This document shows, piece by piece, positions 48,039 through 64,000 of a stretch of DNA of 64,000 bases. The notes under the pieces were generated by a model. The model did not search any database, was not told the DNA's origin, and saw nothing but the letters and a program-made list of their open reading frames with translations. Numbering within the stretch: position 1 is the first letter of the stretch; each line of letters starts with the position of its first letter. The stretch is from contig JBBRLQ010000020.1 in the NCBI GenBank assembly GCA_038231275.1, forward strand, positions 32,001 to 96,000. The letters are read 5' to 3'. Source of the stretch: Polyangiales bacterium (GTDB taxonomy: Bacteria; Myxococcota_A; Polyangia; Polyangiales; Polyangiaceae). Made by a program: the position numbers and the translations under genes.

Positions 48039-48217
48039 TTTCGTATGTAGAGCGTGTGCGCGATTCTATATGATTGTTATTACTTTATATTTAACAACCC
48101 TAGCGTAACCGCCTGCCGCTCCCAACACCCCCCGATTGGGGAAACAAGATCCACCTACATGGTCCTACGCCGCCTCACCTTTCGGTGCGGGACTGCGTTG
48201 GTATGCTCGCGGTCGAG

Positions 48218-50140
48218 ATGACGGACCCGAAGCGCGATGACGGGGGGCAGGACCGCGCGCTCGCCGAGCACTGGCCTGCGATCCTCGAAGCGCTCCATCT
48301 CGCGAAGATCGGCGTGTGCGTCACGACCATCGAAGCCGGCGTTTCGCGCAACGTGGTGGTGAGCGACGTCGCGGTCGAAATCCTGGGCCACCCGCGAGAG
48401 GCGCTCCTCTCGGGATCGGCGTTCGATTTCATCGTGCCGTCCGAACGGGAGCGGCTGCGCGAGCGACGCGACCGACGCCTGAGCGGCGAGGCGCTCGATC
48501 CCGTGATCGACACGGTCATCGTGGGCGCCGACGGCACCGAGCGGCCCATCACATTCGTCTTGACCGACGTGTCGATCGACGGTGCCCCGGCGCGCGTCTC
48601 GCTGTTCTGGGACATCTCGGCGCGGCGGGATGCGGAGATCGCGCTGCGCTCCAAAGAGGCGCGGCTGCGGCGGCTCTTCGAGTCCGCGCCCGACGGCATC
48701 GTGGTCTCGCGAGAGGGCGTCGTCCTCGAGGCGAACCCCGCGGCGGCGAACATGCTCGGCTTCGCCGCCGCCGAGGAGATGATTGGGACCTCCCTACGCG
48801 CCGTGCTGTCGCCGGTGGACCGCACGGTGATGGCCCAGCGCGTCGCGGCCGCACGCGAGGGGCAGCGATTGGCGCCACACGTGTACGAGGCGCGTCGGCG
48901 CGACGGCGCGCGAATCACTGCCGAGATTACGTCGGTGCCCTACGAGCACGACGGAAAGCCCGCGGTCATGGGCTTCGCGCGCGACGTGACCGAGCGCCTG
49001 CGCCTCCAGGAGCAGCTCATGCAGAGCGAGCGCCTCGCCGCGCTGGGGACACTCGCGGCCGGCGTCGCCCACGAGATCAACAATCCGCTGACCGTGATGG
49101 TGCTGGGCATCCAGGCGCTCGACGCGCGCCTCAAGCGAGCGCTCGCGCGAACGCAGCCAGAGGAGCAGCGCGACCTCTCCGAGCTCATCTCCGAGCTTCG
49201 CGACAGCGTGGATCGCGTGGCCGGCATCGTCGGCGAGCTGCGTACCTTTGGCCGATCCGACGAGCACCCGCCTCGCCCCACCGACATCGCCGCGGTGCTG
49301 GCCTCCGCGGAGCGACTCGCCGCGCACCGCATCCGTCCGGGCGCCGAGGTGTGGCCGCGCTACGACCGCATCCCACTCGTGATGGGGCACGCGCGGCGCC
49401 TCGAGCAGGTGTTCGTCAACCTCCTCTTCAACGCCGCGCAGGCGATGCCCGAGGGACGGCCCGGCAATCGCATCGATCTCCGTGCGAGTGTCGCGGAGGA
49501 CGGGCGCGTGGTGATCGAGGTCACCGACAACGGCACCGGCATGCCCTCCGAGGTGCGGAGCCGCGCGTTCGATCCTTTCTTCACGACCAAGGTCGTGGGC
49601 GAAGGGACCGGGCTCGGTCTATCGATCAGCCACGGCATCGTGACCCGGCTCGGCGGAGAGATCACCATCGAGAGTGAGGTGGGAAAGGGCACCACGGTGC
49701 GCGTGCACCTCCTGGCGGCGACCGCCGGAGAGACAGCGCTCGCGCCGGAGACTTCGCGTCGACGGCCTCTCCCGCGCCTGCGCATGCTCGTCATCGACGA
49801 CGAGCCCGCCCTCGTGTCGTCGCTGCGCGCGCTGCTGACCGACGAGCACGAGATCGTGACGGCGGTGACGGGGAGCGACGCGTGCGTGCTGCTCGACCAG
49901 GGCCCCGCCTTCGACGTCGTGCTCTGTGACCTCATGATGCCGGGAATGACGGGGATGGATGTCCATGCGCGCATGACGGACACGCGGCCCGAGGTGCTTC
50001 CGCGCTTCCTCTTCATGACCGGCGAAGCGTTCACGCCGCGCGCCACGCAGTTCGTCGCGTCGGTGCCGAACAAGGTCCTCCGCAAGCCGTTCTCGATCGA
50101 GGAGCTCATGACGGCCCTCGGCGATCTCGTCGCTTCCTAG
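48218..50140 (+). CDS. Hybrid sensor kinase (PAS, PAS, HisKA, HATPase, REC)
   Basis: LFESAPDGI..EANPAA PAS; AHEINNPL; FDPFFTTK..GTGLGL; LVIDDE..CDLMMP. Confidence 0.93.
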   Translation: MTDPKRDDGGQDRALAEHWPAILEALHLAKIGVCVTTIEAGVSRNVVVSDVAVEILGHPREALLSGSAFDFIVPSERERLRERRDRRLSGEALDPVIDTVIVGADGTERPITFVLTDVSIDGAPARVSLFWDISARRDAEIALRSKEARLRRLFESAPDGIVVSREGVVLEANPAAANMLGFAAAEEMIGTSLRAVLSPVDRTVMAQRVAAAREGQRLAPHVYEARRRDGARITAEITSVPYEHDGKPAVMGFARDVTERLRLQEQLMQSERLAALGTLAAGVAHEINNPLTVMVLGIQALDARLKRALARTQPEEQRDLSELISELRDSVDRVAGIVGELRTFGRSDEHPPRPTDIAAVLASAERLAAHRIRPGAEVWPRYDRIPLVMGHARRLEQVFVNLLFNAAQAMPEGRPGNRIDLRASVAEDGRVVIEVTDNGTGMPSEVRSRAFDPFFTTKVVGEGTGLGLSISHGIVTRLGGEITIESEVGKGTTVRVHLLAATAGETALAPETSRRRPLPRLRMLVIDDEPALVSSLRALLTDEHEIVTAVTGSDACVLLDQGPAFDVVLCDLMMPGMTGMDVHARMTDTRPEVLPRFLFMTGEAFTPRATQFVASVPNKVLRKPFSIEELMTALGDLVAS

Positions 50141-50296: not shown

Positions 50297-52390
50297 ATGG
50301 GACGCCGCGTGCGTTTCTGCGTGGGTGCGTCGGTCTGCGTTGCGGTCGCGATCCTGGGGGCGTGCGTCACGCGCCCGACGGTGTCGAGCAAGCCGAGCAC
50401 GAAGGACGTCGTTCAAATCCCGATCTTGTCGAAGAGGATCTCGAAGATCGATCTCCTCTTCGCGATCGACAACTCCGCATCGATGGGGGACAAGCAGACG
50501 CTCCTCCGAGATGCCGTTCCGGATCTGATCACGCGGCTCCTGGTGCCGCTGTGCGTCGACCCCGACGTGCCTACGACCGTCCTCGGCGCGTCGGTGAACG
50601 GCGCCTGCGACAAGGGGGAGATCGAGTTTCCGCCGCTCACCGATCTTCACGTCGGCGTGGTGAGCTCGTCGCTCGGCGGCCTCGGGTCGGGCGCGTGCGC
50701 TGCGGCGTTCCACGATCCGACGCTCCCGCAGGCCGAGTGGCACAACGACGATCAAGGGCACTTGATCGCGCGAAGCGGCGCGGGCGCGGCGGGCGCGAGG
50801 GCGCTCTTGGCATGGACGCCGGCGGCCGGTGAGCCGAGCACGTTCATCGCGGCGTTCCAGGACCGCGTCAGCGGCGTCGGCGAGTATGGCTGCGGCTTCG
50901 AAGCGCAAGAAGAGAGCTGGTACCGCTTCCTCGTCCAGCCTGATCCCTACGCGACCATCGACACGTCGTCGGGACGCGCCGTCTTCGCCGGCGTCGACGA
51001 GGAGCTGCTCAAGGAGCGGCGCGATTTCTTGCGACCGGACTCGCTCGTCGCGATCGTGCAAATCACCGACGAGAACGAATCGACCGTCGATCCGCGCTCG
51101 CTCGGGGGACGAGGGTTCCGGATGCTCGATCCGGACGGAGGCTCGGCCCCGCGCGCGACGGCGGCGTGCGCGAAAGATCCGAACCTCCCGGCGTGCAGCT
51201 CGTGCGGGTCCGACGAGAACGCCGGGCTACCCGAGTGCGCGACGCGGACCGCGGGCGACGACGTCCCGAACGTGCGCTTTTTCCACATGAAGCAGAGATT
51301 CGGAGTGGACCCGATGTACCCGGTGGCCCGGTACACGCGCGGCCTCGGCGTGGCGCCCGACGCGACGGGGGCGGCGCTCGACGTGCCCAATCGCGCCGGC
51401 ACGAGCTGCACCAATCCGCTCTTCGCGGCGACGCTTCCCAGTGGCGCGAAGGACGATCTCTGCGCGCTCGCGCGAGGCCCACGCGCTCCTGGTCTCGTCT
51501 TCTACGCGGCGATCACCGGCGTCCCGAGAGACCTCCTGCCCGCGACCGGCGTGCCGTCGGTGGACGACTGGACCAAAATGCTCGGCGCGGATCCGCTCCG
51601 GTACGACTTCACGGGCGCCGATCCGCGGATGCTCGAGTCGATCGCCGTGAGGCCGGGCGTGGCCGGCGATCGCGACACCGGTGGTCAAGACTTGCAGTAT
51701 GCATGCACCTTCCCCCTCGCCAAGGCACGCGCGTGCGATGCGAATGACATCGCGTGCGACTGCAAGAACGGCGGCCCCCTCTGCGACCCTGCGAACGGCG
51801 CCGTGCAGGTGCGCGCGAAGGCGTACCCCGGCGTGCGGCACCTCCTCCTCGCGCGCTCGCTCGGACAGAACGGCGTCGTGGCGTCGATCTGTCCGGACGA
51901 CACCACCGACGCGTCGGTGGAGAACGCCCGCTTCGGGTACCGGCCCGCGATGCGATCGATCGCCGAGCGACTCGGCGCAATCCTCGCGGCCCAGTGCCTC
52001 CCGAGGCCGCCGCGCGCCGACGCCTCCGGTCGGGTGCCGTGCTTGGTGCTCGAGGCGATGACCGGCGACGCGATCGGCGACGACGCGTGCGACAGGCCTG
52101 CGCAAGGGCTCACGCGCGCCGATCCCGCCGTGCTCGCCGCGTTTCGTCGCGAGCACGCCGCGGCGCACGAGGATCTCTCGACGGTCGCGCTCTGCGAGAA
52201 GACCCAGCTCGTGGAAGCGGGTGGGGCGCGATGCAGCGACGATCCTCGCGCAGGGTGGTGCTATGCACGCGGGCCTGAGGCCCTCCGCGCGACACGCCAG
52301 AAGTGCCCGGAGGCGATCGTGTTCTCGCGGACGGGACAGCCCGCGTCGGGCCACACGGTCTACCTCCAATGCATCGAGCAAGCGGACTGA
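50297..52390 (+). CDS. Cys-rich VWA-like lipoprotein (myxobacterial family)
   Basis: Lipobox LGAC; MIDAS-like DLLFAIDNSASM; VQITDENE; many Cys. Confidence 0.75.
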   Translation: MGRRVRFCVGASVCVAVAILGACVTRPTVSSKPSTKDVVQIPILSKRISKIDLLFAIDNSASMGDKQTLLRDAVPDLITRLLVPLCVDPDVPTTVLGASVNGACDKGEIEFPPLTDLHVGVVSSSLGGLGSGACAAAFHDPTLPQAEWHNDDQGHLIARSGAGAAGARALLAWTPAAGEPSTFIAAFQDRVSGVGEYGCGFEAQEESWYRFLVQPDPYATIDTSSGRAVFAGVDEELLKERRDFLRPDSLVAIVQITDENESTVDPRSLGGRGFRMLDPDGGSAPRATAACAKDPNLPACSSCGSDENAGLPECATRTAGDDVPNVRFFHMKQRFGVDPMYPVARYTRGLGVAPDATGAALDVPNRAGTSCTNPLFAATLPSGAKDDLCALARGPRAPGLVFYAAITGVPRDLLPATGVPSVDDWTKMLGADPLRYDFTGADPRMLESIAVRPGVAGDRDTGGQDLQYACTFPLAKARACDANDIACDCKNGGPLCDPANGAVQVRAKAYPGVRHLLLARSLGQNGVVASICPDDTTDASVENARFGYRPAMRSIAERLGAILAAQCLPRPPRADASGRVPCLVLEAMTGDAIGDDACDRPAQGLTRADPAVLAAFRREHAAAHEDLSTVALCEKTQLVEAGGARCSDDPRAGWCYARGPEALRATRQKCPEAIVFSRTGQPASGHTVYLQCIEQAD

Positions 52391-52415: not shown

Positions 52416-53345
52416 TCACGGGCACGTGCCGACGACCCTGCCCATCCACGTCATCCCAGTGAACGGCCCTTCCCATTTCCCGCCGGGCGCGCCCGTGTAC
52501 TCGCGCACGTTGACGCCCTTCTGCGATATCGAGCAGGACATCGATCCGAACGCGCCGGGGGCTTGGTACATGAAGTACTTGTGCTGCGCGACGAGCCGCA
52601 GCGGCGGGAAGATCTCCGCGCCGCGCCAGGTTTGCGTCGCGCTCGCGCCGTCGAGATCGCCCTGGAAGAGCACGGCCCCGGGCTTGTCGCACGCGGCGTC
52701 GCTGTCGAGGATCGCGACCTTGCCCGGCGTCGTGAAGAGCTCGATGCGCGACGCCGCGACGTCGATTTGCGGAACGTACTCGAATGCCGCGCCGCTCCCG
52801 CCGCAGTTGGTCGCGGGAGGCGAGGTGATGTTCACGCCTTCGCCGCACGCGCCGTAGGAGCTCGTCGCTTGAGGAGACGGATCGCCGGTAAAGGAGCAGG
52901 AGCCCGCGTTGACGATGCACGCGTTCGTGACGTGCCATCGGCCCCCGCCGCCAGCGATCGCCTGGCAGACCGCGGTGCCCACGCCGTTCAGACAAGGAAA
53001 CGTACGACCCTCGCCGATGCGGCTGGGGTTGCTAGGCCCACAGCATCCCCCGCCGCCAGTGCCGCACGTCGCGCCCTCGACCGGATCGGGCTCGGGACCG
53101 CCATAGCAACCAGGCGCCGCGCAGGACCACGTCCCTGATCGGCACGAGCAGAACGAGCACCCGTACGTACACTGGAGCCCCTCGGCGGAGCAACCTCCGG
53201 CCGCCGGGGTCGCGGGGCAGCCGGCGGAGTTGCCGTCGGAGCCGCCGTCCGCCGCGTCGCTCCCGACGCCGACGACCGAGCCACCGCACGACGCCAAAAC
53301 CGGGAGGAGCAGCGGCGCAGAGAAGAGGAGGGCCAGGAGGCGCAT
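52416..53345 (-). CDS. Cys/Gly-rich lipoprotein
   Basis: Lipobox LASC; many Cys in the N-terminal half; beta-rich C-terminal domain. Confidence 0.7.
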   Translation of the reverse strand: MRLLALLFSAPLLLPVLASCGGSVVGVGSDAADGGSDGNSAGCPATPAAGGCSAEGLQCTYGCSFCSCRSGTWSCAAPGCYGGPEPDPVEGATCGTGGGGCCGPSNPSRIGEGRTFPCLNGVGTAVCQAIAGGGGRWHVTNACIVNAGSCSFTGDPSPQATSSYGACGEGVNITSPPATNCGGSGAAFEYVPQIDVAASRIELFTTPGKVAILDSDAACDKPGAVLFQGDLDGASATQTWRGAEIFPPLRLVAQHKYFMYQAPGAFGSMSCSISQKGVNVREYTGAPGGKWEGPFTGMTWMGRVVGTCP

Positions 53346-55395: not shown

Positions 55396-58300
55396 ATGCG
55401 TCCCGTCACGCTCCGCACGCGCATCCTCGTCCGCGAGCTCGCCAGCGGCGAGGTGCTGGCCATCCCGGTCTGCGATCCCGCGCACGCCAGCTTCGGCGGC
55501 GAAGAGGACGCGCTGCTCGAGCAGTCGATGTTCCTCTCCGAGCACCTCGCGCGCGCGAGGCCGGAGACCGTCGCGCGCTTCGCCATACCGGAGGGCACAC
55601 GTTTGCATATTACACGCGTCCTCGTCCCCCGCGAGGAGCTGCCGCACGCCGTCGCGGTCACCCAGCCGATCGAAATCCCGAGTGTCGTCATCCCGTCCAC
55701 CGCGCGCGCGAAGAGCGACGCATGGGTGGTGATCGTGCCGCTCGACTACACGTTCTTCGTCCCCGCGGGCGAGGACCTGGACGAGGCCGTGAAGAGCGAG
55801 GTGCTCCGCCTCGTCGCCGCGGAGGAGGCGGGCGCGACGCACTACCTCGGCCTCTTGCCGGGCGTTCACGATCGCCTCGAGCCGCTCGACGTGAGGATCG
55901 ATCGCTCGTCCGACGGACCGGCGGGGCGCGCGGCGTCCCATCGCAAGGCGATCGCGCAGCGCGAGAAGCGCAAGCACGCGGTGCTCGTCCTCGAGTCGGT
56001 CGCGACGCCGCTGCATCAAGACGAGGCGCGCGCGCGGCCGATGCTCGGACGCGACGCCGACGCCAAGCTCCTCGCGGGCATTCTGGGCGGCGACGAGCGG
56101 CAGAGCGTGGTCCTGGTCGGCGAGCCGAAGGTCGGCAAGACGGCGCTCTTTCGCGCGTGGCTCGCCGCCGAAGTGGAGGCCGGACGTCCGCGCCTCGTGT
56201 ACGCGACGAGCGGCGCGCAGCTCATCGCGGGAATGAGCGGCCTCGGGCAGTGGCAAGAGCGCGTTCGCCGCGTGATGGACGCCGCGCACACGCTCGACGC
56301 CATCCTCTACTTCGACGATCTCGCCGATCTCTTCAGCGAGCGGGCGCACGGGATCGATCTCGGCGGCGCGATGAAGCCGTGGTTGGAGGAGGGCAGAGTG
56401 CGCCTCGTCGGCGAGCTCGCCAAAGATCGCGCGGAGGTGGTCGAGAGCCGCCACGTCGGCTTCTTCTCGTGCACCAGCCGCATTCGCCTCGAGCCGATGT
56501 CTCCGGTGCAGGCCCTCGTGGCCCTCCGCGCGCACGCCGCGGCCGACGGCAAGCACGAGCCGCACGCCGTTCAGGTCGCCGACGACGCGCTCGTCGCGAT
56601 TTGCGATCTCGCCGAGCGGTACCTCCCCTACGAAGCGTTCCCCGGAAAGGCGGCGCGCTTGTACGACGATCTGCGCGCGAGCCAAGAGCTCGGGAGGAGC
56701 CGCGCAGAGGGTGCACCGGCGCCCCGACTCTCGGCCGGCGACGTGTTCGATTGGTTCAGCGTGCGCACCGGCGTGCCGCCGTTCCTCCTCCGCGACGACG
56801 CGGCGCTCCGGCAGGAGTGGATCGCCGCGCATTTCGATCGACGCTTGATCGGGCAAGATGACGCGAAGGCGCGCGTGCGAGGCACCATCGCCGTCGTGAA
56901 GGCGGGGCTCCAGCCCGCGGGAAAGCCGCTCGCGACGTTCCTCTTCGTGGGCCCCACCGGCGTCGGCAAGACGGAGCTCGCGCGCGCGACGGCGGAGCTG
57001 CTCTTCGGCCACGCCGATCGCCTGGTTCGCTTCGACATGAGCGAGTACACCGACCCGTGGGCGGCCGAGCGCCTGATCCGCGGCACCGAGCGCGGCGACG
57101 GTCTCCTCACGCGAAAAGTGCGCGAGCAGCCGTTCTCGGTCGTGCTCCTCGACGAGATCGAGAAGGCCCACCCCGCGGTGTTCGATCTGCTCCTCCAGGT
57201 GTGCGGCGAAGGGCGCCTCACCGACGGGCGCGGAAAGACCGCGTACTTTCACAACACGATCCTCATCATGACGAGCAACCTCGGCGCCGCGCACCGCAGA
57301 GGCGCGGTCGGCTTCGAGGGGACCGGCGCGTCCGACGACGGGTACTACGTGAAGGAGGTCGAGAAGACGTTCCGGCCGGAGATGGTCAACCGGATTGATC
57401 GCATCGTCGCGTTCCGGACCCTCACGCGCGACGAGATCCGCGCGGTCACGCGCCTCACGGTGGAGCGCGTGCGCACGCGGCGCGGGCTCGCCCAGGGCGC
57501 TTTGGAGCTCGTCGTCTCCGACGCCGCCCTCGCGCACCTCGCGGAGCGCGGCTTCAGCGACGCGTACGGCGCGCGGGCGCTGCGGAGGCACGTCGAGGAT
57601 CACCTCACCACCCCGGTCGCGCGCCTCCTCACGAGCCTGACCCACGGCGGCGGCCGCGACATCGTCGACGTGCGAACGGCCGACGAGCCCGAGTACGAAG
57701 GCACCTCGAACCTCGTCACGCGCGCGTCGTCGGGCGGCCTCGTCTTCTCGCTCCTCGGCAAGCCGCGCGGCCTCACGGCGCCGATGACCAGCGTCTGGGC
57801 CCTCTCCGAATTGCGGCGCGAGCTCCAGAAGTACATGCGCCTCGACCGCGTGACCGAGCTCAAGGCGCAGCTCGAGTTCGTGATCGCGCAGCTCAGCTAC
57901 GGGGAGCCGGGGAAGAAGAAGAAGGGGTCGGAGCTCGCGCGCGCCGGCTCGGAGGTCGGCCGCCTCTCCTCCGAGCACCACAAGCTCCACGAGGTGTGGT
58001 CGGCGCTCGAGGGCGCGTACACGGATCTCCAGAGCGCCGAGGAGCTGGGCTTCGCGGCCTTCTTCGCGGGCGAGCGCTTCGACGCGCTCCTCGAGGAGGC
58101 GCACGCGATCAAGGCGCGCTTCCGCGCGGGGCTCCTCCAGGCGCTCACGTGCCGCGATCCGAAGCGCTTCGGCGTGACGCTGCTCCTCCAGGAGCTCGAC
58201 GACGGCCGCGCGTTCGACGCCTGGCTCGCGCCGCTCCTCGACGCGTGCGACGCGCGAGGCTGGGAGCTGGAGCTTCACGTCGACGCGAACACCAAGGAGG

Positions 58301-58929
58301 ATCGCGCGGGGACCAAGTGGCCCGAAGCGCGCCGCTGGGGTCCGCCGCGAACCGCCAAGGCGTTCAAGGACGTGCTCGGGGATCGGGGTCGAACCTTCAA
58401 GAACGTGCTCCTCCGGGCGCGCGGGCCGAGCGTCGGCATCCTCCTGGGACTGGAGGGCGGCCTCCATCGCTTCCACGACGTGCACCCCGACGTCCGCCCC
58501 TGCCACATGCTCGCGATGCGCATCGCCTTTCGCGCGACGCTCAAGGACGACGACTGGCTCTCGCCGACGATCGCGCCGCCTCTACCCGCCGCCGCCGATC
58601 ACGCGCGCCGACAACAACCCACGCGCGAGGTGCTCGCCAACGAAGGGGTCGTCCACGTCTTCGCCAAGCGCGCGGTCCTCAAGATCCCGCTCGCCGACTA
58701 CTGGTCCCGCTTCGACGAGATCGCGCTCGAGCACCTGCTTCTCTTCGAGACGCGCGACGATCTCGATCGCGACGTGACCCTCGCCGCCATCTTCGAAGAC
58801 GAGTGGGACGACGTCACGGAGCTCGTTCGCCAAGGGCACCTCATCGAGGCGAACAAGCGGTACCGCGAACGCGCGGGAGTCGGGCTCAAGGAGGCGAAGG
58901 ACTACGTCGACTCGCTGAGGGGCAGCTGA
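55396..58929 (+). CDS. ClpA/ClpC-like double AAA+ ATPase with release-factor-like and L7/L12-like C-terminal regions (paralog 1)
   Basis: D1 GEPKVGKT, FPGKA; D2 GPTGVGKTEL, RFDMSEY, LLDEIEKAHP, GRLTD, IMTSNLG; C-terminal LGLEGGLHRF and GVGLKEAKDYVD. Confidence 0.88.
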   Translation: MRPVTLRTRILVRELASGEVLAIPVCDPAHASFGGEEDALLEQSMFLSEHLARARPETVARFAIPEGTRLHITRVLVPREELPHAVAVTQPIEIPSVVIPSTARAKSDAWVVIVPLDYTFFVPAGEDLDEAVKSEVLRLVAAEEAGATHYLGLLPGVHDRLEPLDVRIDRSSDGPAGRAASHRKAIAQREKRKHAVLVLESVATPLHQDEARARPMLGRDADAKLLAGILGGDERQSVVLVGEPKVGKTALFRAWLAAEVEAGRPRLVYATSGAQLIAGMSGLGQWQERVRRVMDAAHTLDAILYFDDLADLFSERAHGIDLGGAMKPWLEEGRVRLVGELAKDRAEVVESRHVGFFSCTSRIRLEPMSPVQALVALRAHAAADGKHEPHAVQVADDALVAICDLAERYLPYEAFPGKAARLYDDLRASQELGRSRAEGAPAPRLSAGDVFDWFSVRTGVPPFLLRDDAALRQEWIAAHFDRRLIGQDDAKARVRGTIAVVKAGLQPAGKPLATFLFVGPTGVGKTELARATAELLFGHADRLVRFDMSEYTDPWAAERLIRGTERGDGLLTRKVREQPFSVVLLDEIEKAHPAVFDLLLQVCGEGRLTDGRGKTAYFHNTILIMTSNLGAAHRRGAVGFEGTGASDDGYYVKEVEKTFRPEMVNRIDRIVAFRTLTRDEIRAVTRLTVERVRTRRGLAQGALELVVSDAALAHLAERGFSDAYGARALRRHVEDHLTTPVARLLTSLTHGGGRDIVDVRTADEPEYEGTSNLVTRASSGGLVFSLLGKPRGLTAPMTSVWALSELRRELQKYMRLDRVTELKAQLEFVIAQLSYGEPGKKKKGSELARAGSEVGRLSSEHHKLHEVWSALEGAYTDLQSAEELGFAAFFAGERFDALLEEAHAIKARFRAGLLQALTCRDPKRFGVTLLLQELDDGRAFDAWLAPLLDACDARGWELELHVDANTKEDRAGTKWPEARRWGPPRTAKAFKDVLGDRGRTFKNVLLRARGPSVGILLGLEGGLHRFHDVHPDVRPCHMLAMRIAFRATLKDDDWLSPTIAPPLPAAADHARRQQPTREVLANEGVVHVFAKRAVLKIPLADYWSRFDEIALEHLLLFETRDDLDRDVTLAAIFEDEWDDVTELVRQGHLIEANKRYRERAGVGLKEAKDYVDSLRGS

Positions 58930-58931
58930 CG

Positions 58932-61900
58932 ATGCACGTCACCGTCCCGGTCTATCAGAAGCGCGCAGGCCAGAACCTGGAGTGGATCACGCTCGGCCTC
59001 GGCACGCACACCAAGACGCGGGCCGGCACCAACGCGCAGAAAATCCAGGAGAAGCTCACCGACGATCTGCGCCGCGCCGCCGAGGGGGCTCCACCGCGCG
59101 ATCTCCCGTCGTTCCAGCTCAAACGCGGGACTCGCCTCGAGCGCGTGCGCGTCGAGCTCGTGTTGAAGAGCGAGGGACAGAAGCGGAAGCCCTCCGGTCT
59201 CGTCCCGGTGATCGTCGAGCCGCGCGAGGCCGGCGACGGCGCGCGCTTCGTCATCGCGTACCACCCGGCGCGTCAAAGCGAGTGGTTCCCCGTCCGCGAG
59301 GGACAGACGCTGGCCGAGCAAGCCAAGGCGTTCTTCCAAAAGGCGTGGGCGGGCCTCGACGACGAGGCGCTCGGCCTCCTCTGGTCGAACGGCCGCGATC
59401 TGCTGAAAATTCTAGCGTTCTCCTTTCGCCCGCGATCGCTGCTCGACGAGCTGCCCGACAAGAAGAAAGGCATCTGGGACGATCTCGACGCGGATCCGGC
59501 GCGGCAGAAGCAGAAGAAGGCGCCGGCCGGCATGCAGGTCTTGCCGCGGCTCGGCGTCGATCTCACCGCGCGCGCCGAGACTCGCCGCGACCAGGCCAGG
59601 CCGCGCCCGCCCTACCGCGAGCAGCTCCAGAGCCTCCTCTCTGCGGCGAAGAAGCAGTCGACGCTGCTGGTCGGCGCGCACGGGGTCGGGAAATCGACGC
59701 TGCTCGATCAATGGATCTTGGATCTGATGGAGGCGGAGGACTTCCCGTCGCACCGGAACCTCGACCGCGTGACCCACGTGTGGTCGCTGGGCGGCAAGCA
59801 GCTCATCGCCGGGATGTCGTATGTCGGCGATTGGGAGAAGCGCTGCGTCGATTTGCTCGAGGACGTACGCGGTCGCAAGGTGGTCCTCATCGTCCACGAT
59901 TTGCACCTTTTCGGGCAGATCGGCCGCGCGCGGGACAGCGATCGCGCGCTCGCCGATTTCTTCCGCGGGCCGCTCGCGCGCGGGGAGATCGTCCTCGCCG
60001 GCGAGTGCACGGCCGAGCAGCTGCGGCGCCTCGAGGAGGACGCGCCGGCCTTCGCGGCGCTTTTCGCGCGCGTCTTCGTCCGCGAGGCGACGAGCGAGGA
60101 GACCTTCCGCATGATGGTCGGCACTGCGCGGCGGCTCGAGATGGAGAGGAACGTCACGTTCGACGCGTGGGCCTTCCAGACGATCCTCGAGCTCGGCGCC
60201 GCGCTCTTCCCGTCGCACGCGCTGCCGGGAAAGGCCATCGACATGCTCGAGCGCCTCGCCCACGAGCACGACGCGGAAGAAGGCGACGATGCGACCGACA
60301 TCGACGGCGATCTGGTCACCGATCACTTGACCGAGCGCACCGGCCTCCCGTACCGCCTGATCTCTCCGGGCGGCACGCTGAAGCAGAGCGACGTCGAGGC
60401 AGCGCTCGCGCTGAAGGTCATGGGGCAGCCCGAGGCGGTCGCGGCCGCCGCCGATGTCGTGGTGCGCGTGCGCGCAGGGCTCACGGATCCGAAGCGTCCT
60501 TACGCCGTTCATCTGTTCACGGGGCCGACGGGCACCGGCAAGACCGAGCTGGCGAAGGCGCTCGCCGAGTACCTGTACGGCGGGCCGTCGCGCCTCCTCC
60601 GGCTCGACATGAGCGAGTTCGGCTCCGCAGACGCCGTCGCGCGTCTCATCGGCGACGCGTGGACGCCGGACGGTCTCCTCACGAGCGCGATCAAAGAGCA
60701 GCCGTTCAGCGTAGTGCTCCTCGACGAGATCGAGAAGGCGCATCCCGCGGTGCACAACCTCCTCCTCCAGCTCTTCGACGAGGGCCGCCTCACCGACGCG
60801 GCGGGCAACGCGGTGAGCTTCCTCCAGTCGGTCGTGGTGATGACGTCGAACCTCGGCGCACGCACGCGGCCGCCGATGGGGTTCACGGAGGCGCCCGATC
60901 AAGTGATGCTCGAGATCGCGCGCGCGGTGCGCGAGTTCTTCCCGCCGGAGCTGTGGAACCGCATCGATCGCGTCGTGCCGTTCCGGCCGCTCTCGCGCGA
61001 GGTCGCGGTCGACGTGGCGCAGAAGGAGCTCGCGAAGCTCCTCGGCCGACGCGGACTCGCCGATCGCAACATCTTCGTCCACGCCAACCGCGCCGTGGTC
61101 GAGCGGGTCGCCGCCGACGCGTTCCGCCAAGAGGACGGGGCGCGCTCGCTGAAGCGCTTCCTCGAGGATCGCATCGGGTCGCGCCTCAGCGAAGAGATCG
61201 CGAAGGCCCCCAACGCGGCGCTCCAGGTCGTTCGCCTCTTCGACGGTGAGGACGGCTTCGTCCTCGAGCACGAGCCGCTCGTGGAGGCCGAGCCGTGCGG
61301 AGATCGTTTCGCGCTCGAGCCGCTCCTCGAGCTGCCCTTGGCGGACCTCCAGGCGCGCCTCCCGGAGCTGGTGACGAGCCTCGACGAGATCGAGAAGAGC
61401 CCGCGTTTCCTCGCGATCGAGCAGCAAATCATACGTCTCCTCGCCGCCCGGCGCGAGGGACGGGTCGACGCCGGCGACACGATCTTCGATCTGGATTGGA
61501 CGCGCGCGAGCCTGAAGGCGTTCCGCGACAAGATCGAGCGCCTGAGCGTCGCGTCGCGCGATCTCGGATACGAAGAGCTCGAGGCGCGGCAGTTCGGGAC
61601 GCAAGAGGTCGAGGTCGGCGGCGCGCTCGTGCGCATGCGCGTCCTCTCACGCCTCGGCGAGCGAGACTCGGCGCGCGCCATCACGCGGCGTGAGCTCCTC
61701 GAGTGCTTCGCGCAGGTGCAGTTCCTCGCGCGGGCGCTGGGGAAGGTGCATGACCCCACGCAGCACGCCGTGAAGGTGGAGGTGCTGCCGATCGGGAGCG
61801 CGGCGTCGCTCGCGAAGTGGCTCGCGGCAGCCTACGCGGGAAAGTGGGGGCAGCTCGCCGGCTACGCGACGCTCGCGCGCGGGACGGCGCTCGAGGGAAC

Positions 61901-62342
61901 CGACAAGCGCCACCTCGCCGTCGCGCTCGAGGCGAAGCCGGACCTCATCGTGCTGCGCATCCAGGGCATGTGCGTGCGCGACTTCGCGGAGCTCGAGACC
62001 GGCACCCACGTCTGGCAAGGCGCGACGACGGCCCCGGAGCTGGTGCGCGTGCGCGTGCTCACCGACGACGGTCGCCCGCTCGCCGATCACGTCGAGGAGC
62101 ACCGGCGGCGGCGCGACGCGTTCGAGAAGGCCGCGATCGCCCCGGGGCGCGAGGCCGAGAACCCGTCGCGCCTCCTCCCGATCGCACGCACGATCCGCTT
62201 CGATCCGCCGCGCGCCGGCCTGGCCCCGCTCGCGCTCGAGGATTTCGCGATGGGGCACGGCGGGACGTTCCACGTGAAGACGATCGCCGAGGCGCTCGGC
62301 ACGCTGTGGCTCCTTCGCATGACGCGGGAGGCGCGCGCATGA
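58932..62342 (+). CDS. ClpA/ClpC-like double AAA+ ATPase with release-factor-like C-terminal region (paralog 2)
   Basis: D1 GAHGVGKS, LPGKA; D2 GPTGTGKTEL, RLDMSEF, LLDEIEKAHP; C-terminal AELETGTHVW; starts 2 nt after paralog 1. Confidence 0.88.
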   Translation: MHVTVPVYQKRAGQNLEWITLGLGTHTKTRAGTNAQKIQEKLTDDLRRAAEGAPPRDLPSFQLKRGTRLERVRVELVLKSEGQKRKPSGLVPVIVEPREAGDGARFVIAYHPARQSEWFPVREGQTLAEQAKAFFQKAWAGLDDEALGLLWSNGRDLLKILAFSFRPRSLLDELPDKKKGIWDDLDADPARQKQKKAPAGMQVLPRLGVDLTARAETRRDQARPRPPYREQLQSLLSAAKKQSTLLVGAHGVGKSTLLDQWILDLMEAEDFPSHRNLDRVTHVWSLGGKQLIAGMSYVGDWEKRCVDLLEDVRGRKVVLIVHDLHLFGQIGRARDSDRALADFFRGPLARGEIVLAGECTAEQLRRLEEDAPAFAALFARVFVREATSEETFRMMVGTARRLEMERNVTFDAWAFQTILELGAALFPSHALPGKAIDMLERLAHEHDAEEGDDATDIDGDLVTDHLTERTGLPYRLISPGGTLKQSDVEAALALKVMGQPEAVAAAADVVVRVRAGLTDPKRPYAVHLFTGPTGTGKTELAKALAEYLYGGPSRLLRLDMSEFGSADAVARLIGDAWTPDGLLTSAIKEQPFSVVLLDEIEKAHPAVHNLLLQLFDEGRLTDAAGNAVSFLQSVVVMTSNLGARTRPPMGFTEAPDQVMLEIARAVREFFPPELWNRIDRVVPFRPLSREVAVDVAQKELAKLLGRRGLADRNIFVHANRAVVERVAADAFRQEDGARSLKRFLEDRIGSRLSEEIAKAPNAALQVVRLFDGEDGFVLEHEPLVEAEPCGDRFALEPLLELPLADLQARLPELVTSLDEIEKSPRFLAIEQQIIRLLAARREGRVDAGDTIFDLDWTRASLKAFRDKIERLSVASRDLGYEELEARQFGTQEVEVGGALVRMRVLSRLGERDSARAITRRELLECFAQVQFLARALGKVHDPTQHAVKVEVLPIGSAASLAKWLAAAYAGKWGQLAGYATLARGTALEGTDKRHLAVALEAKPDLIVLRIQGMCVRDFAELETGTHVWQGATTAPELVRVRVLTDDGRPLADHVEEHRRRRDAFEKAAIAPGREAENPSRLLPIARTIRFDPPRAGLAPLALEDFAMGHGGTFHVKTIAEALGTLWLLRMTREARA

Positions 62343-64000
62343 GCAAGAAGAGCCTTCGCGTGTATTTCGTCGACCACGGCGTCGAGAAGAAGTCCGGCAT
62401 GCTCCTCCGCGTGTGGGACAACTTCTTCGACCGCCCGCCGCCCGCCGCGTTCGGCGCGAGCGAAGCCGACATCCTGGAGCAGCTGGAGCAGCAGCTCGCC
62501 GAGCTCGAGGCAGAGACCGCGGGCGAGCTCGAGCGCTACCTGTGGGACGAGACCTTCGCGACGCGCGAGGTGCGCATCGTCGTGCACCCGCGCTCCTCGA
62601 TCAAGAAGCGCGCAGTCATCGGGAAGAAGGAGATCCCGATGACGCTGACGTATGCATACTGCAAGCTCCCGGGCGGAGGCTTCCGCGTGATGGTGCCGCG
62701 CTTCGGCGGGTGGTTCATCCTCGAGGATCTCGCGCTGGCCCCCGAGGTGCTGCGCCACGCGGTGTCGAGCTGGCTGCTCGGCGAGAACCCGCGCTGGGTC
62801 TACGACTTCCGTCACGAAGGCGAGGAGGTCGTTCGCGAGTGGGCGCCGGCGATCTTGAAGCGGACGCCACCGCGCGCGTCCACCGAGGCCGCGGGCGACG
62901 CGATGCCGACGACCGCGCAGGTCGCCGAAGAGCTCGTCGAGCGCGCGGCGAAGGGGAAGCTGCCGATGCCGGTCGGCGCGTCCCCGGAGCTCGCGCGCGC
63001 GACCAGCGATCTCGCGAAGCTGCCGCCGACGTCGATCCTCCTCGTGGGCCCCAGCGGCGTCGGCAAGACGGCGTGGGTGCGCCGCGCCGCGCATCTGTTC
63101 GTGACCTGGCGACGGCAGCCGAACAAGAAGGCGCCGCGCATCTGGGCGACGAGCGCGGACCGGATCATCGCGGGGATGGTCTACCTGGGCCAGTGGCAGG
63201 AGCGGTGCATCGCGCTGGTGCGCGAGCTGTCGCACGAGGGGGACTACCTCTACGTCGATCGCCTGGCGCCCCTCCTGCGGCCGCAGCCCGACGGCTCCAG
63301 CATCGCGGACTTCCTCGAGCCCGCGCTGGCGGCGGGCGAGCTCAGCCTCATTGCAGAGTGCACGGAATCGGAGCTCGAACGCATGCTCCGCGAGCGCCCG
63401 ACGCTGGTGGGTCGCTTCTCGCTCGTGCGCATCGCCGAACCGTCGCAAGAGGCGGTGCTGGAGCTCGTGGGCCTGTACGCGCAGAAGCGCGGCGGGACGG
63501 CGCTGCACGCGTCCAGCCTGAAGCGAATGGTTCGTCACCTCGCGTCGTTTCAGCGGTCGACCGCGTTTCCGGGAAAGGCGATTCGCTTCGTCGACTGGCT
63601 CGCGAAGGAAGGGGCGAACAAGACGCTCTATCCGCGCGACGTCTCCGAGGCCTTCTCGCGCTACTCGGGGCTCCCGCTGGAGCTGATCAGCGACGACTAC
63701 CCTGCCAGCGCCGAGGCCCTCGCCGGAGCGCTCAAGGCGCGCGTCGTCGGGCAGGACGAGGCGTGCGACGCGTGCGGACGAATGCTCGCGCGCTTCAAGG
63801 CGATGATGACCGATCCCGAGCGACCGACCGGGGCGCTGCTCTTCGTCGGCCCCACCGGCGTCGGAAAGACCGAGCTCGCCAAGCAGCTCGCGCGCACGAC
63901 GTTCGGCGACGCGAAGCGGATGATCCGCCTCGACATGAGCGAGTACATGCTGCGCGGCGCGGCGAATCGGCTGCTCGACACCTCCCCGGGCGTGCGGAGC
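62339..64000 (+). CDS. ClpA/ClpC-like double AAA+ ATPase (paralog 3, runs off the window end)
   Basis: Translated by hand from the ATGA overlap: MSKKSLRVYF..GPSGVGKT..IIAGMVYLGQWQER..FPGKA..VVGQDEA..GPTGVGKTEL..RLDMSEY. Absent from the ORF track because it has no stop in the window. Confidence 0.85.
   Translation, partial: MSKKSLRVYFVDHGVEKKSGMLLRVWDNFFDRPPPAAFGASEADILEQLEQQLAELEAETAGELERYLWDETFATREVRIVVHPRSSIKKRAVIGKKEIPMTLTYAYCKLPGGGFRVMVPRFGGWFILEDLALAPEVLRHAVSSWLLGENPRWVYDFRHEGEEVVREWAPAILKRTPPRASTEAAGDAMPTTAQVAEELVERAAKGKLPMPVGASPELARATSDLAKLPPTSILLVGPSGVGKTAWVRRAAHLFVTWRRQPNKKAPRIWATSADRIIAGMVYLGQWQERCIALVRELSHEGDYLYVDRLAPLLRPQPDGSSIADFLEPALAAGELSLIAECTESELERMLRERPTLVGRFSLVRIAEPSQEAVLELVGLYAQKRGGTALHASSLKRMVRHLASFQRSTAFPGKAIRFVDWLAKEGANKTLYPRDVSEAFSRYSGLPLELISDDYPASAEALAGALKARVVGQDEACDACGRMLARFKAMMTDPERPTGALLFVGPTGVGKTELAKQLARTTFGDAKRMIRLDMSEYMLRGAANRLLDTSPGVRS

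Follow-up and report, generated by a model that had tools for sequence, protein, structure and literature searches.

A conserved trio of adjacent ClpA-like AAA+ genes in Myxococcota, two of them with release-factor-like C-terminal domains: a candidate heteromeric unfoldase that may be directed to ribosomes

We report on three consecutive genes, referred to as g1, g2 and g3, which encode Clp-like AAA+ ATPases and lie at the end of a 64,000-nucleotide (nt) stretch of DNA from a Polyangiales bacterium (NCBI GenBank assembly GCA_038231275.1). This whole stretch is called the window, and its numbering is used unless stated otherwise. The source assembly comprises 9.28 Mb in 164 contigs with a G+C content of ~69%, and the window covers positions 32001-96000 of contig JBBRLQ010000020.1 (here C20). 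Gene g1 (55396..58929) encodes a protein of 1177 amino acids (aa), g2 (58932..62342) one of 1136 aa and g3 (62339..64000 within the window) one of 759 aa; the g3 stop codon, read on the full contig, lies 618 nt past the window (C20:96618, window-equivalent 64618). All three genes, and all their features given below, are on the forward strand. The g1 stop codon is followed by 2 nt and the g2 start (TGA, CG, ATG; 58927..58934), and g2 and g3 share an ATGA overlap (62339..62342). Assignment of g1 and g2 is based on their open frames, Pfam and NCBIfam, together with orthologues in 22 loci (g1) and a motif alignment (g2). Translation reproduced both the frames and the junctions described in a first-pass annotation of this DNA, which had been made from the sequence alone and had counted "at least three" such genes. 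Four genes are indeed coupled in this genus; the conserved module consists of exactly three (see below). We suggest that the trio is a self-contained, anciently triplicated module of some Myxococcota, and that its products probably work together in one AAA+ ring.

The g1 protein is built of an N-domain, a degenerate first AAA+ module (D1), a second module (D2) that is predicted to be active, a release-factor-like C-domain and a short helical tail. The g2 protein has an N-domain, a degenerate D1 that has kept the pore-loop Tyr, a predicted active D2 and a release-factor-like C-domain, and the g3 protein an N-domain, a degenerate D1 in which the pore-loop Tyr is invariant and a predicted active D2, with no C-terminal extension. 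Pfam and NCBIfam agree on the two AAA modules per gene that had been noted before, and each protein carries two GK[ST] P-loops. D2 is matched by Pfam AAA_2 (E-values 1e-41, 6e-39 and 2e-41 for g1, g2 and g3, respectively), followed by ClpB_D2-small (2e-13, 1e-8 and 1e-17); in g1 these two domains span aa 510-669 and 676-747 (56923..57636). With their tandem modules and a D2 of this type, all three proteins belong to the two-module (class-I) Clp/Hsp100 superfamily. The best PDB sequence matches of D2 are ClpB (E 1e-91), and its identity to canonical Clp proteins amounts to ~35-40%. The two modules can be aligned together, in a single colinear stretch, with the NCBIfam ClpA model, which is devoid of an M-domain (g1 187-752 versus model 156-728), and they are also colinear with the ClpA chains of the PDB; judged from these alignments there is no M-domain between D1 and D2 in any of the three. 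Clp_N, the N-terminal repeat reported missing in the first-pass annotation, is absent among the Pfam families listed at E≤0.01 for g1, g2 and g3.

To compare motifs, we aligned 21 g1, 19 g2 and 19 g3 proteins (those of the window and of the related loci) together with the ClpA, ClpB, ClpB-like and ClpV proteins of the window genome and an odd fifth paralogue of it. In D1 of the window proteins Walker A reads GEPKVGKT (g1), GAHGVGKS (g2) and GPSGVGKT (g3), and the pore loop AGMSGLGQW, AGMSYVGDW and AGMVYLGQW, respectively (for g1, a motif search places Walker A at aa 242-249 and the pore loop at aa 278-286; 56119..56253). The GK[ST] P-loop of D1 is retained among the orthologues with three exceptions, all in g2. 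The catalytic Glu of the D1 Walker B is gone (YFDDL in g1, IVHDL in g2, YVDRL in g3); among the orthologues, the residues at the "DE" position are [DE][DNEHS] (g1), x-D (g2) and [DG]-x (g3). None of the g1, g2 and g3 rows has the RR Arg fingers seen in canonical proteins. The pore-loop Tyr of D1, present in ClpA and ClpB of the same genome, is replaced by Gly in most g1 proteins; it is mostly retained in g2 (some His or Arg) and invariant in g3.

D2 has retained Walker A, the Walker-B DE, the sensor-1 Asn, the Arg of NR[IL]D and the sensor-2 GAR in all three paralogues, and its Walker B, LLDEIEKA, is common to g1, g2 and g3. In g1 the D2 motifs are located at aa 519-526 (Walker A), 584-591 (LLDEIEKA), 626-630 (TSNLG), 638-640 (VGF) and 725-727 (GAR). 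GYVG is the name given to the D2 pore-loop motif with the conserved aromatic residue; the corresponding stretch is four to five residues shorter than in canonical proteins in all three paralogues, and the shortened loop has an aromatic residue (W, Y or F) in most g2 proteins and none in g1 or g3. These departures are conserved across 18-21 orthologues per paralogue and are therefore not due to chance or decay. Thus the features listed in the first-pass annotation, i.e., the D1 Walker B devoid of the catalytic Glu, the AGMxxxGxW pore loop of D1 and the missing D2 GYVG, hold for the trio, and the intact D2 Walker A and B that had been noted for the first two genes extend to g3. The D1 catalytic residues are lost and those of D2 retained, which fits a ring driven mainly by D2, as had been proposed.

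A further motif is situated at most 22 residues after sensor-1 of D2. Here the tripeptide x-G-[FLIV] is present in 21 of 21 g1, 18 of 19 g2 and 19 of 19 g3 proteins; the g2 protein without it comes from a frame-shifted gene, and in one g3 protein the tripeptide is GGV. At the same place the genome's own ClpA has VGF and its ClpB QGL, while ClpV and the second ClpB have none. A hydrophobic-Gly-hydrophobic loop constitutes the ClpP-docking loop of ClpA, ClpC and ClpX. A canonical clpP is present in the genome, and we tentatively suggest from the [VIL]-G-[FLI] loops that a substrate pulled by the trio may go to ClpP.

The relationship to known Clp proteins was studied in a phylogenetic tree computed using FastTree with 94 rows and 741 kept columns, Shimodaira-Hasegawa-like support values and midpoint rooting. 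The rows were 21 g1, 18 g2 and 18 g3 proteins, five Clp-like proteins of the window genome and 32 of 35 canonical Clp proteins from other phyla, which by NCBIfam label were 13 ClpB, one ClpK and 18 that score below the ClpB cut-off and are here called ClpC-like. Left out as broken or partial were the g2 and g3 of one damaged locus (L097), both pieces from locus L101, the g1 of L098 and an extra paralogue from L095. The g1, g2 and g3 proteins are each monophyletic (support 100) and together they form one clade (support 100) outside ClpA, ClpB, ClpC-like, ClpK and ClpV, separated from the 37 canonical rows by a branch of 0.26 + 0.73. The trio is thus not nested in the ordinary ClpA/B clades; such nesting is what, according to the first-pass annotation, would have refuted its proposal.

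One could argue that the trio consists of ordinary ClpA, ClpB or ClpC chaperones that have merely been duplicated, since the homologues carry public names such as "AAA family ATPase" or "ClpC" and D2 has kept its identity to canonical proteins. However, the best NCBIfam scores are about 300-340 bits against cut-offs of 993 (ClpA), 1232 (ClpB) and 885 (ClpV), all of which are exceeded by the genome's own ClpA, ClpB and ClpV. This, the separate clade and the lack of a listed Clp_N, of an M-domain, of D1 catalytic residues and of GYVG make mere duplication hardly credible. As a separate observation, the fifth ClpA-like paralogue (~900 aa; L005:577-3276, forward strand, around 170331-173030 of contig C1 of the same genome, G000) falls outside the trio clade; it has a ~300-residue N-terminal region for which we have no explanation, an IGF tripeptide and scores below all NCBIfam Clp cut-offs.

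Conservation of the gene arrangement was studied in 22 loci from other genomes, which were found via the g1 C-domain and to which the domain pieces were mapped using tblastn. (A search with the whole of g2 returned mostly canonical Clp genes, which have the same D2 motif, and these loci were kept solely as outgroups for the tree.) In 17 of the 22 loci g1, g2 and g3 follow in the same order on one strand, with each piece best matching its own orthologue. Contig ends cut three loci (L093, L098 and L099), and in L101 the g1/g2 junction has collapsed while the g2 C-domain and g3 are still present. The sole locus from another class (L104, contig C44 of genome G235) has g1 followed by a gene for a cation-chloride cotransporter and unrelated genes; a g2-g3 pair is found apart from it, at the very end of another contig of the same genome (C47; L118). 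In this genome either the adjacency of g1 is broken or a second g1 lies past the contig end. With the start codon taken as the one nearest to the aligned start, as picked by a script, the distance from g1 to g2 is -4 to +5 nt in 18 of 20 loci and that from g2 to g3 -8 to +7 nt in all 19, of which 15 have a 4-nt overlap. Orthologues are 45-63% identical in the core compared to ~35% between paralogues. The paralogues are not unlinked singletons, a finding that would have refuted the first-pass proposal had it been otherwise.

Two observations concern individual loci. In L097 (contig C10 of genome G037), which is among the 17, g2 is split into frames of 823 and 505 aa and g3 is short by ~114 N-terminal residues; this may reflect decay of the module or a sequencing error. 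In L095 an extra Clp-like open frame (positions 2-1948), ~32-35% identical to the trio cores, is located 2 kb upstream of the trio.

The conserved order and the 4-nt overlaps suggest stoichiometric co-production of the three proteins. Moreover, pairs of loci such as L109/L111, L110/L112, L102/L108, L103/L106 and L094/L096 are common to the g1, g2 and g3 subtrees, as predicted by co-inheritance of the genes as one block since a single old triplication. From the linkage, the tight coupling and these shared pairings we consider it likely that the trio co-assembles as one mixed ring. Clp/Hsp100 machines are textbook homohexamers, and it is conceivable that each of the three paralogues forms a homohexamer of its own, the three working one after another or on distinct clients, with co-regulation as the sole reason for the linkage. 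Each paralogue has the full set of D2 ATPase motifs, so that each might form its own ring, and g1 is unlinked from g2-g3 in one genome. Against this stand the fixed order and the 4-nt overlaps, which persist across families despite an orthologue identity of no more than ~40-60%, the same pairings in the three subtrees, and the complementary pore loops, in which g2 alone has the D2 aromatic and g1 is the one without the D1 Tyr. The pore aromatics are split among the paralogues, and a D2 ring made of g1 or g3 alone would therefore have none. Separate homohexamers thus appear improbable to us compared to the mixed ring.

The most unusual parts of the trio are the C-domains of g1 and g2. Unusual terminal domains had been pointed out in the first-pass annotation, and two of them now emerge as putative release-factor mimics, g1 by fold and g2 by homology to g1. 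The g1 C-domain (408 aa, 57703-58926) was modelled with AlphaFold2 from an alignment of 21 rows, and the model has a mean predicted local distance difference test (pLDDT) value of 87 and a predicted template modelling (pTM) score of 0.82. Using Foldseek against the PDB, this model gave 31 matches at E≤1e-3 (best 1.7e-7), and the rows listed at this threshold are all RF1, RF2 or mtRF1, with PrfH lower down. In VIA-align, residues 27-356 of the model superpose on residues 4-365 of release factors with Z 12-13.9, the alpha/beta core (about 151-353) at ~3 Å over ~150 residues, and rows 1-41 of the list are release factors. On the sequence level, the 21-row profile of the g1 C-domain gave 19 weak matches against PDB sequences (E 0.1-8.4), of which 18 (E 0.1-3.8) are RF2 or RF1 and colinear, and hhalign matched it to the genome's own RF1, RF1-like and RF2 proteins (probability 91%, E 9e-7, 236 columns). 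Together, AlphaFold2, Foldseek, VIA and hhalign delimit the release-factor-like module of g1 to aa ~797-1126 (57784..58773), and these ~330 C-terminal residues are predicted to constitute a complete four-domain class-I release-factor fold in which the GGQ and codon-reading motifs are missing.

The g2 C-domain (357 aa; 61269..62339) is homologous to the g1 module as judged by hhalign of the two profiles (probability 92%, E 5e-7, 267 columns). In the ESM Atlas its top three matches are clusters with a PCRF domain (0.84-0.87), which we rate as a lead only, and its profile gave no meaningful match to PDB sequences. The assignment of the release-factor fold to g2 is therefore indirect, through its homology to g1 and the Atlas lead. 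Pairwise BLASTP found nothing, either between the C-domains or between the N-domains.

The motifs on which release factors depend are not seen in the modules. GGQ is present in none of the 21 g1 and none of the 15 g2 C-domain rows, and the g1 loop that faces GGQ is P-rich and variable. PxT and SPF are the stop-codon recognition tripeptides of class-I release factors; in the hhalign alignment to the genome's own release factors the region of these motifs faces unrelated g1 sequence. Scanning g1 and g2 with Pfam at E≤0.01 gave neither RF-1 (PF00472) nor PCRF (PF03462), and a scan of the genome with PF00472 identified four other loci only. The g1 C-domain also has a ~35-residue insert in the sheet of domain 2 with a nearly invariant W-P-x-x-R-R-W-G-P-P-R (about residues 206-216 of the domain), for which no counterpart was seen in the release-factor alignment. 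When the profile was searched against 1.84 billion representative proteins it gave 266 matches at E≤1e-3. Among the 150 matches listed, the long proteins (about 1030-1220 aa; one of 1741) have the domain at about residues 700-1150, and the shorter matches resemble fragments of genes. Within the reach of this search, the module appears to exist only behind this Clp core. The genome encodes three full-length release factors and, in addition, a small ArfB-like RF-1 gene (144-aa frame; L117, G000:C20:142971-143351), the latter ~46 kb downstream of the trio.

What these arms are for can be read in more than one way. That two subunits have retained the whole four-domain shape of a release factor is most simply explained by a fit to the A site and the factor-binding face of the ribosome, and on the basis of the fold model we regard it as an even question whether the release-factor arms aim the ring at ribosomes. 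GGQ is lost, and the modules can therefore be expected to bind but not to release peptide, as Dom34/Pelota among the eRF1 relatives. A family survey in this field offers a comparison: Dom34 is described there as being devoid of the catalytic Gln (PMC6514570), comparable to the missing GGQ here. If, alternatively, the fold is used for oligomerisation or for adaptor or substrate binding, the trio would be a heteromeric ClpA-like unfoldase for ClpP that works independently of the ribosome, i.e., a specialised proteostasis or regulatory protease of the large-genome myxobacteria. The loss of both the catalytic and the codon-reading motifs, the variable GGQ-loop region, the lack of conserved translation genes nearby and the conserved tripeptide at the VGF position of ClpA are in keeping with such a role. 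On the other hand, g1 keeps the whole four-domain architecture (27-356 versus 4-365 of the release factor) rather than one subdomain, neither g1 nor g2 has lost the module since the triplication, and all characterised proteins of this fold that emerged from the fold searches act on the ribosome. We consider a ribosome-independent role unlikely, if by no means negligible.

The distribution of the trio is patchy. Among 41 close relatives searched for the g1 C-domain, 10 genomes gave a match (a count that includes the window genome; one match covers the last 38 residues alone), and in a sample of 401 genomes from the phylum the profile of the domain identified at least 15, of which 14 belong to the class of the window genome; five candidates were scored per genome, and the count is a lower bound. 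Named Myxococcota with g1 homologues are Sorangium, Chondromyces, Minicystis, Labilithrix, Pendulispora and Hyalangium. The genes that flank the trio vary from locus to locus and include those for a tetratricopeptide repeat (TPR) protein, a UvrA-like ATPase, VKOR-DsbA, an IF-2B-family isomerase, an amidase, Crp and histidine kinases; in L094 genes for a beta-CASP nuclease, a metallophosphoesterase and an EEP nuclease are located downstream. The family may be wider than our searches reached. In L119 (G235:C13:31000-47000) a pair of same-strand genes for proteins of 1105 and 1092 aa is separated by 4 nt, with a convergent 771-aa gene facing them; the first C-domain is weakly like that of g1 (hhalign probability 55%) and the third N-domain is like that of g3 (93%). 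With sizes that follow those of the trio, these genes may be a second and far more diverged set.

Patchiness of this kind is also what one might see for a conflict or defence system, in which the release-factor mimics would sense or block translation under phage attack and the ring would act as a switch or effector. In support of this, D2 of g1 and g2 matches the PADLOC model DolB (79-89 bits) and also PDC-M37B, and genes for nucleic-acid enzymes are located downstream in some loci (an SNF2 gene in the window genome and in another genome of the same genus, the nucleases and phosphoesterase in L094). However, the PADLOC matches are confined to the Clp D2 core that is shared by these proteins (~132-279 of the 375 profile positions), and the three upstream proteins that were scanned gave no PADLOC match. 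The flanks are mostly housekeeping-like and different in every locus, which does not support a defence island, and the recurring pairings in the subtrees suggest, as far as these gene trees go, one block that has been inherited rather than shuffled. A defence function is, in our view, quite improbable.

Taken together, we propose that the trio forms one mixed double-ring AAA+ machine of the ClpA type, devoid of an M-domain. In this machine the D1 tier would bind nucleotide but not hydrolyse it and have a role in assembly, and the D2 tier would be the motor. Through the release-factor mimics the ring would attach to the A-site/factor-binding face of ribosomes that have probably stalled or been damaged, and there the D2 motor would pull a ribosome-bound polypeptide. 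Grip would be provided mainly by the D2 aromatics of g2 and the D1 aromatics of g2 and g3. The [VIL]-G-[FLI] loops of all three proteins may couple the ring to ClpP, so that the extracted product would be degraded. The chain as a whole, a heteromeric D2-driven unfoldase that is docked at ribosomes by release-factor mimics and possibly feeds ClpP, we hold to be possible, a little short of evenly balanced. A more specific version, in which the fused motor plugs the A site of stalled or damaged ribosomes and either mechanically extracts a nascent chain, a ribosomal protein or a factor, or forces the particle apart, before handing over to ClpP, is doubtful.

Several points weigh against this explanation. 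With regard to the ring, strict adjacency is not universal, g1 being apart from g2-g3 in one genome; a D2 pore loop without aromatics, as in g1 and g3, is unusual in a threading motor and may mean that polypeptides are not translocated in the classical manner; and the tree was computed using FastTree only, is midpoint-rooted and includes many rows of odd composition. With regard to the arms, the entries that follow the release factors in the VIA list are unrelated helical proteins (Z≤10.9, the helical part only), hhalign of the g2 C-domain directly against release factors is weak (probability 27%), the GGQ-loop region is poorly conserved and a release-factor fold could have been put to non-ribosomal use. 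No ribosome, tRNA or translation gene was seen among the conserved neighbours in the flanks of the related loci, and a patchy distribution (10/41 and 15/401 genomes) would not be expected for a core quality-control machine.

Among known machines ClpA is similar to the trio in having two colinear AAA+ modules without an M-domain, full D2 ATPase motifs and the tripeptide at the place of VGF. It differs in that the trio scores at a third of the ClpA cut-off, forms a separate clade and has no Clp_N, that its D1 is devoid of the Walker-B Glu and the Arg fingers and its D2 GYVG loop is shortened, and that it comprises three obligate paralogues with new N-domains and, in two of them, release-factor-like C-domains. 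ClpB/Hsp104 gives the best PDB matches for D2 and shares AAA_2 and ClpB_D2-small; unlike ClpB, the trio has no M-domain, its D1 is inactive as judged by motifs, and it carries the tripeptide where the genome's own ClpB proteins have QGL or none. The release factors RF1 and RF2 (and PrfH and mtRF1) are similar in that whole RF1/RF2 chains superpose on the g1 C-domain model and the profile is colinear with the genome's own release factors, whereas the module of the trio has no GGQ, PxT/SPF or Pfam match, is fused behind a Clp core and contains the ~35-residue insert. Dodola DolB and PDC-M37B share the ClpB-like D2 core only; the Dodola system pairs DolB with a partner, DolA, and neither a partner gene nor a defence context came to light in the flanks (PADLOC on the three upstream proteins; downstream, Pfam only).

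Pex1/Pex6 and other AAA+ hetero-hexamers have paralogous double-ring subunits in which D1 is inactive and D2 works, the division proposed here for the trio; unlike the trio, Pex1/Pex6 is eukaryotic, has two paralogues, belongs to the classic AAA clade and has no release-factor module. In the Vms1-Cdc48 and Dom34/Pelota-ABCE1 pairs, which serve as a working analogy only, a protein with a release-factor fold is teamed with an ATPase at stalled ribosomes. These proteins have the unrelated archaeo-eukaryotic eRF1 fold and the ATPase is separate, whereas in the trio a bacterial-type release-factor module is fused to the motor. We know of no bacterial AAA+ unfoldase that is addressed to the ribosome by a built-in release-factor mimic. 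Full-text literature searches found no description of a fusion of Clp and release factor or of a Clp operon with three paralogues, and "Clp" is absent from the main text of the release-factor family survey (PMC6514570). The trio would thus probably represent the first heteromeric Clp ring and the first motor with built-in release-factor mimics. If true, it is a covalent, Clp-based counterpart of the eukaryotic Vms1-Cdc48 and Dom34-ABCE1 pairings. If the three proteins form one ring, it offers a bacterial model for division of labour among paralogous double-ring subunits, with a dead D1 and partial pore aromatics, and if the arms bind ribosomes, the trio represents a new branch of ribosome rescue, quality control or dismantling and, after Dom34, a second case where a dead release-factor fold has been recruited as a targeting device. 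The claim is directly testable since cultivated Sorangium, Chondromyces, Minicystis, Pendulispora and Hyalangium have g1 homologues.

The N-domains of the three proteins are new. Those of g1 (~215 aa; 55396..56040) and g2 are related by hhalign (probability 94%, E 1e-7), as are those of g1 and g3 (91%, E 1.3e-6), and no significant hhalign match was obtained between g2 and g3. The g3 N-domain (200 aa; 62339..62938) is modelled by AlphaFold2 as two alpha/beta subdomains (pLDDT 83). Foldseek gave nothing at E≤1e-3 for this model; in a wide VIA search the best matches were HicB N-domains (Z 6.5, 5.9, 5.8 and 5.6, below the level at which the tool is to be trusted), with double-stranded RNA-binding domains (dsRBDs) and hibernation factors next at Z~4, and in the ESM Atlas there were weak leads with DUF1902 at rank 16 (score 0.78). 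The model thus weakly suggests a HicB/dsRBD-like fold. At its other end g1 has a C-terminal helical tail (58810..58926), and the last ~40 residues of the protein resemble, in a weak match, the helix-turn-helix of the C-terminal domain of ribosomal protein L7/L12: aa 1138-1175 match NCBIfam PRK06771 with 24 bits, below the cut-off, and PF00542 is flagged on 12 of the 120 g1 homologues listed. The tail is present in some orthologues only (3 of 9 rows of one alignment).

The first-pass annotation had pointed to the DNA downstream of g3. Reading on along the contig, we found a gene for an SNF2 helicase (1161 aa; window-equivalent 64618-68103, L011:2619-6104) whose ATG overlaps the g3 stop by 1 nt (TGATG); its start was placed using a codon-position G+C plot and the start-codon context. 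By Pfam, this fourth gene encodes SWIM-like/SNF2_assoc, SNF2-related and helicase-C domains, and the protein is below the NCBIfam cut-offs for the SCO1167/SCO6262 helicase and "pilus expression-regulating Snf2" models. We considered the SNF2 helicase as a fourth core component and rejected it, since it is located behind the trio solely in the window genome and a genome of the same genus (L092); the conserved unit is therefore exactly three genes. Beyond the SNF2 gene there is a gene for a secreted esterase-like protein. Upstream of g1 lies gpsA, the end of which is 23 nt from g1. A promoter scan did not give a site count above that of shuffled sequence, and a terminator scan found none on the forward strand between the trio genes, again with counts not above those of shuffled sequence; at 69% G+C both scans carry little information. 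Further upstream of gpsA there are two sizeable open frames of 697 aa (50297-52390, forward strand) and 309 aa (52416-53345, reverse strand) that have no match in Pfam, NCBIfam or PADLOC, and a hybrid protein with PAS, histidine-kinase and receiver domains is encoded at 48185-50140.

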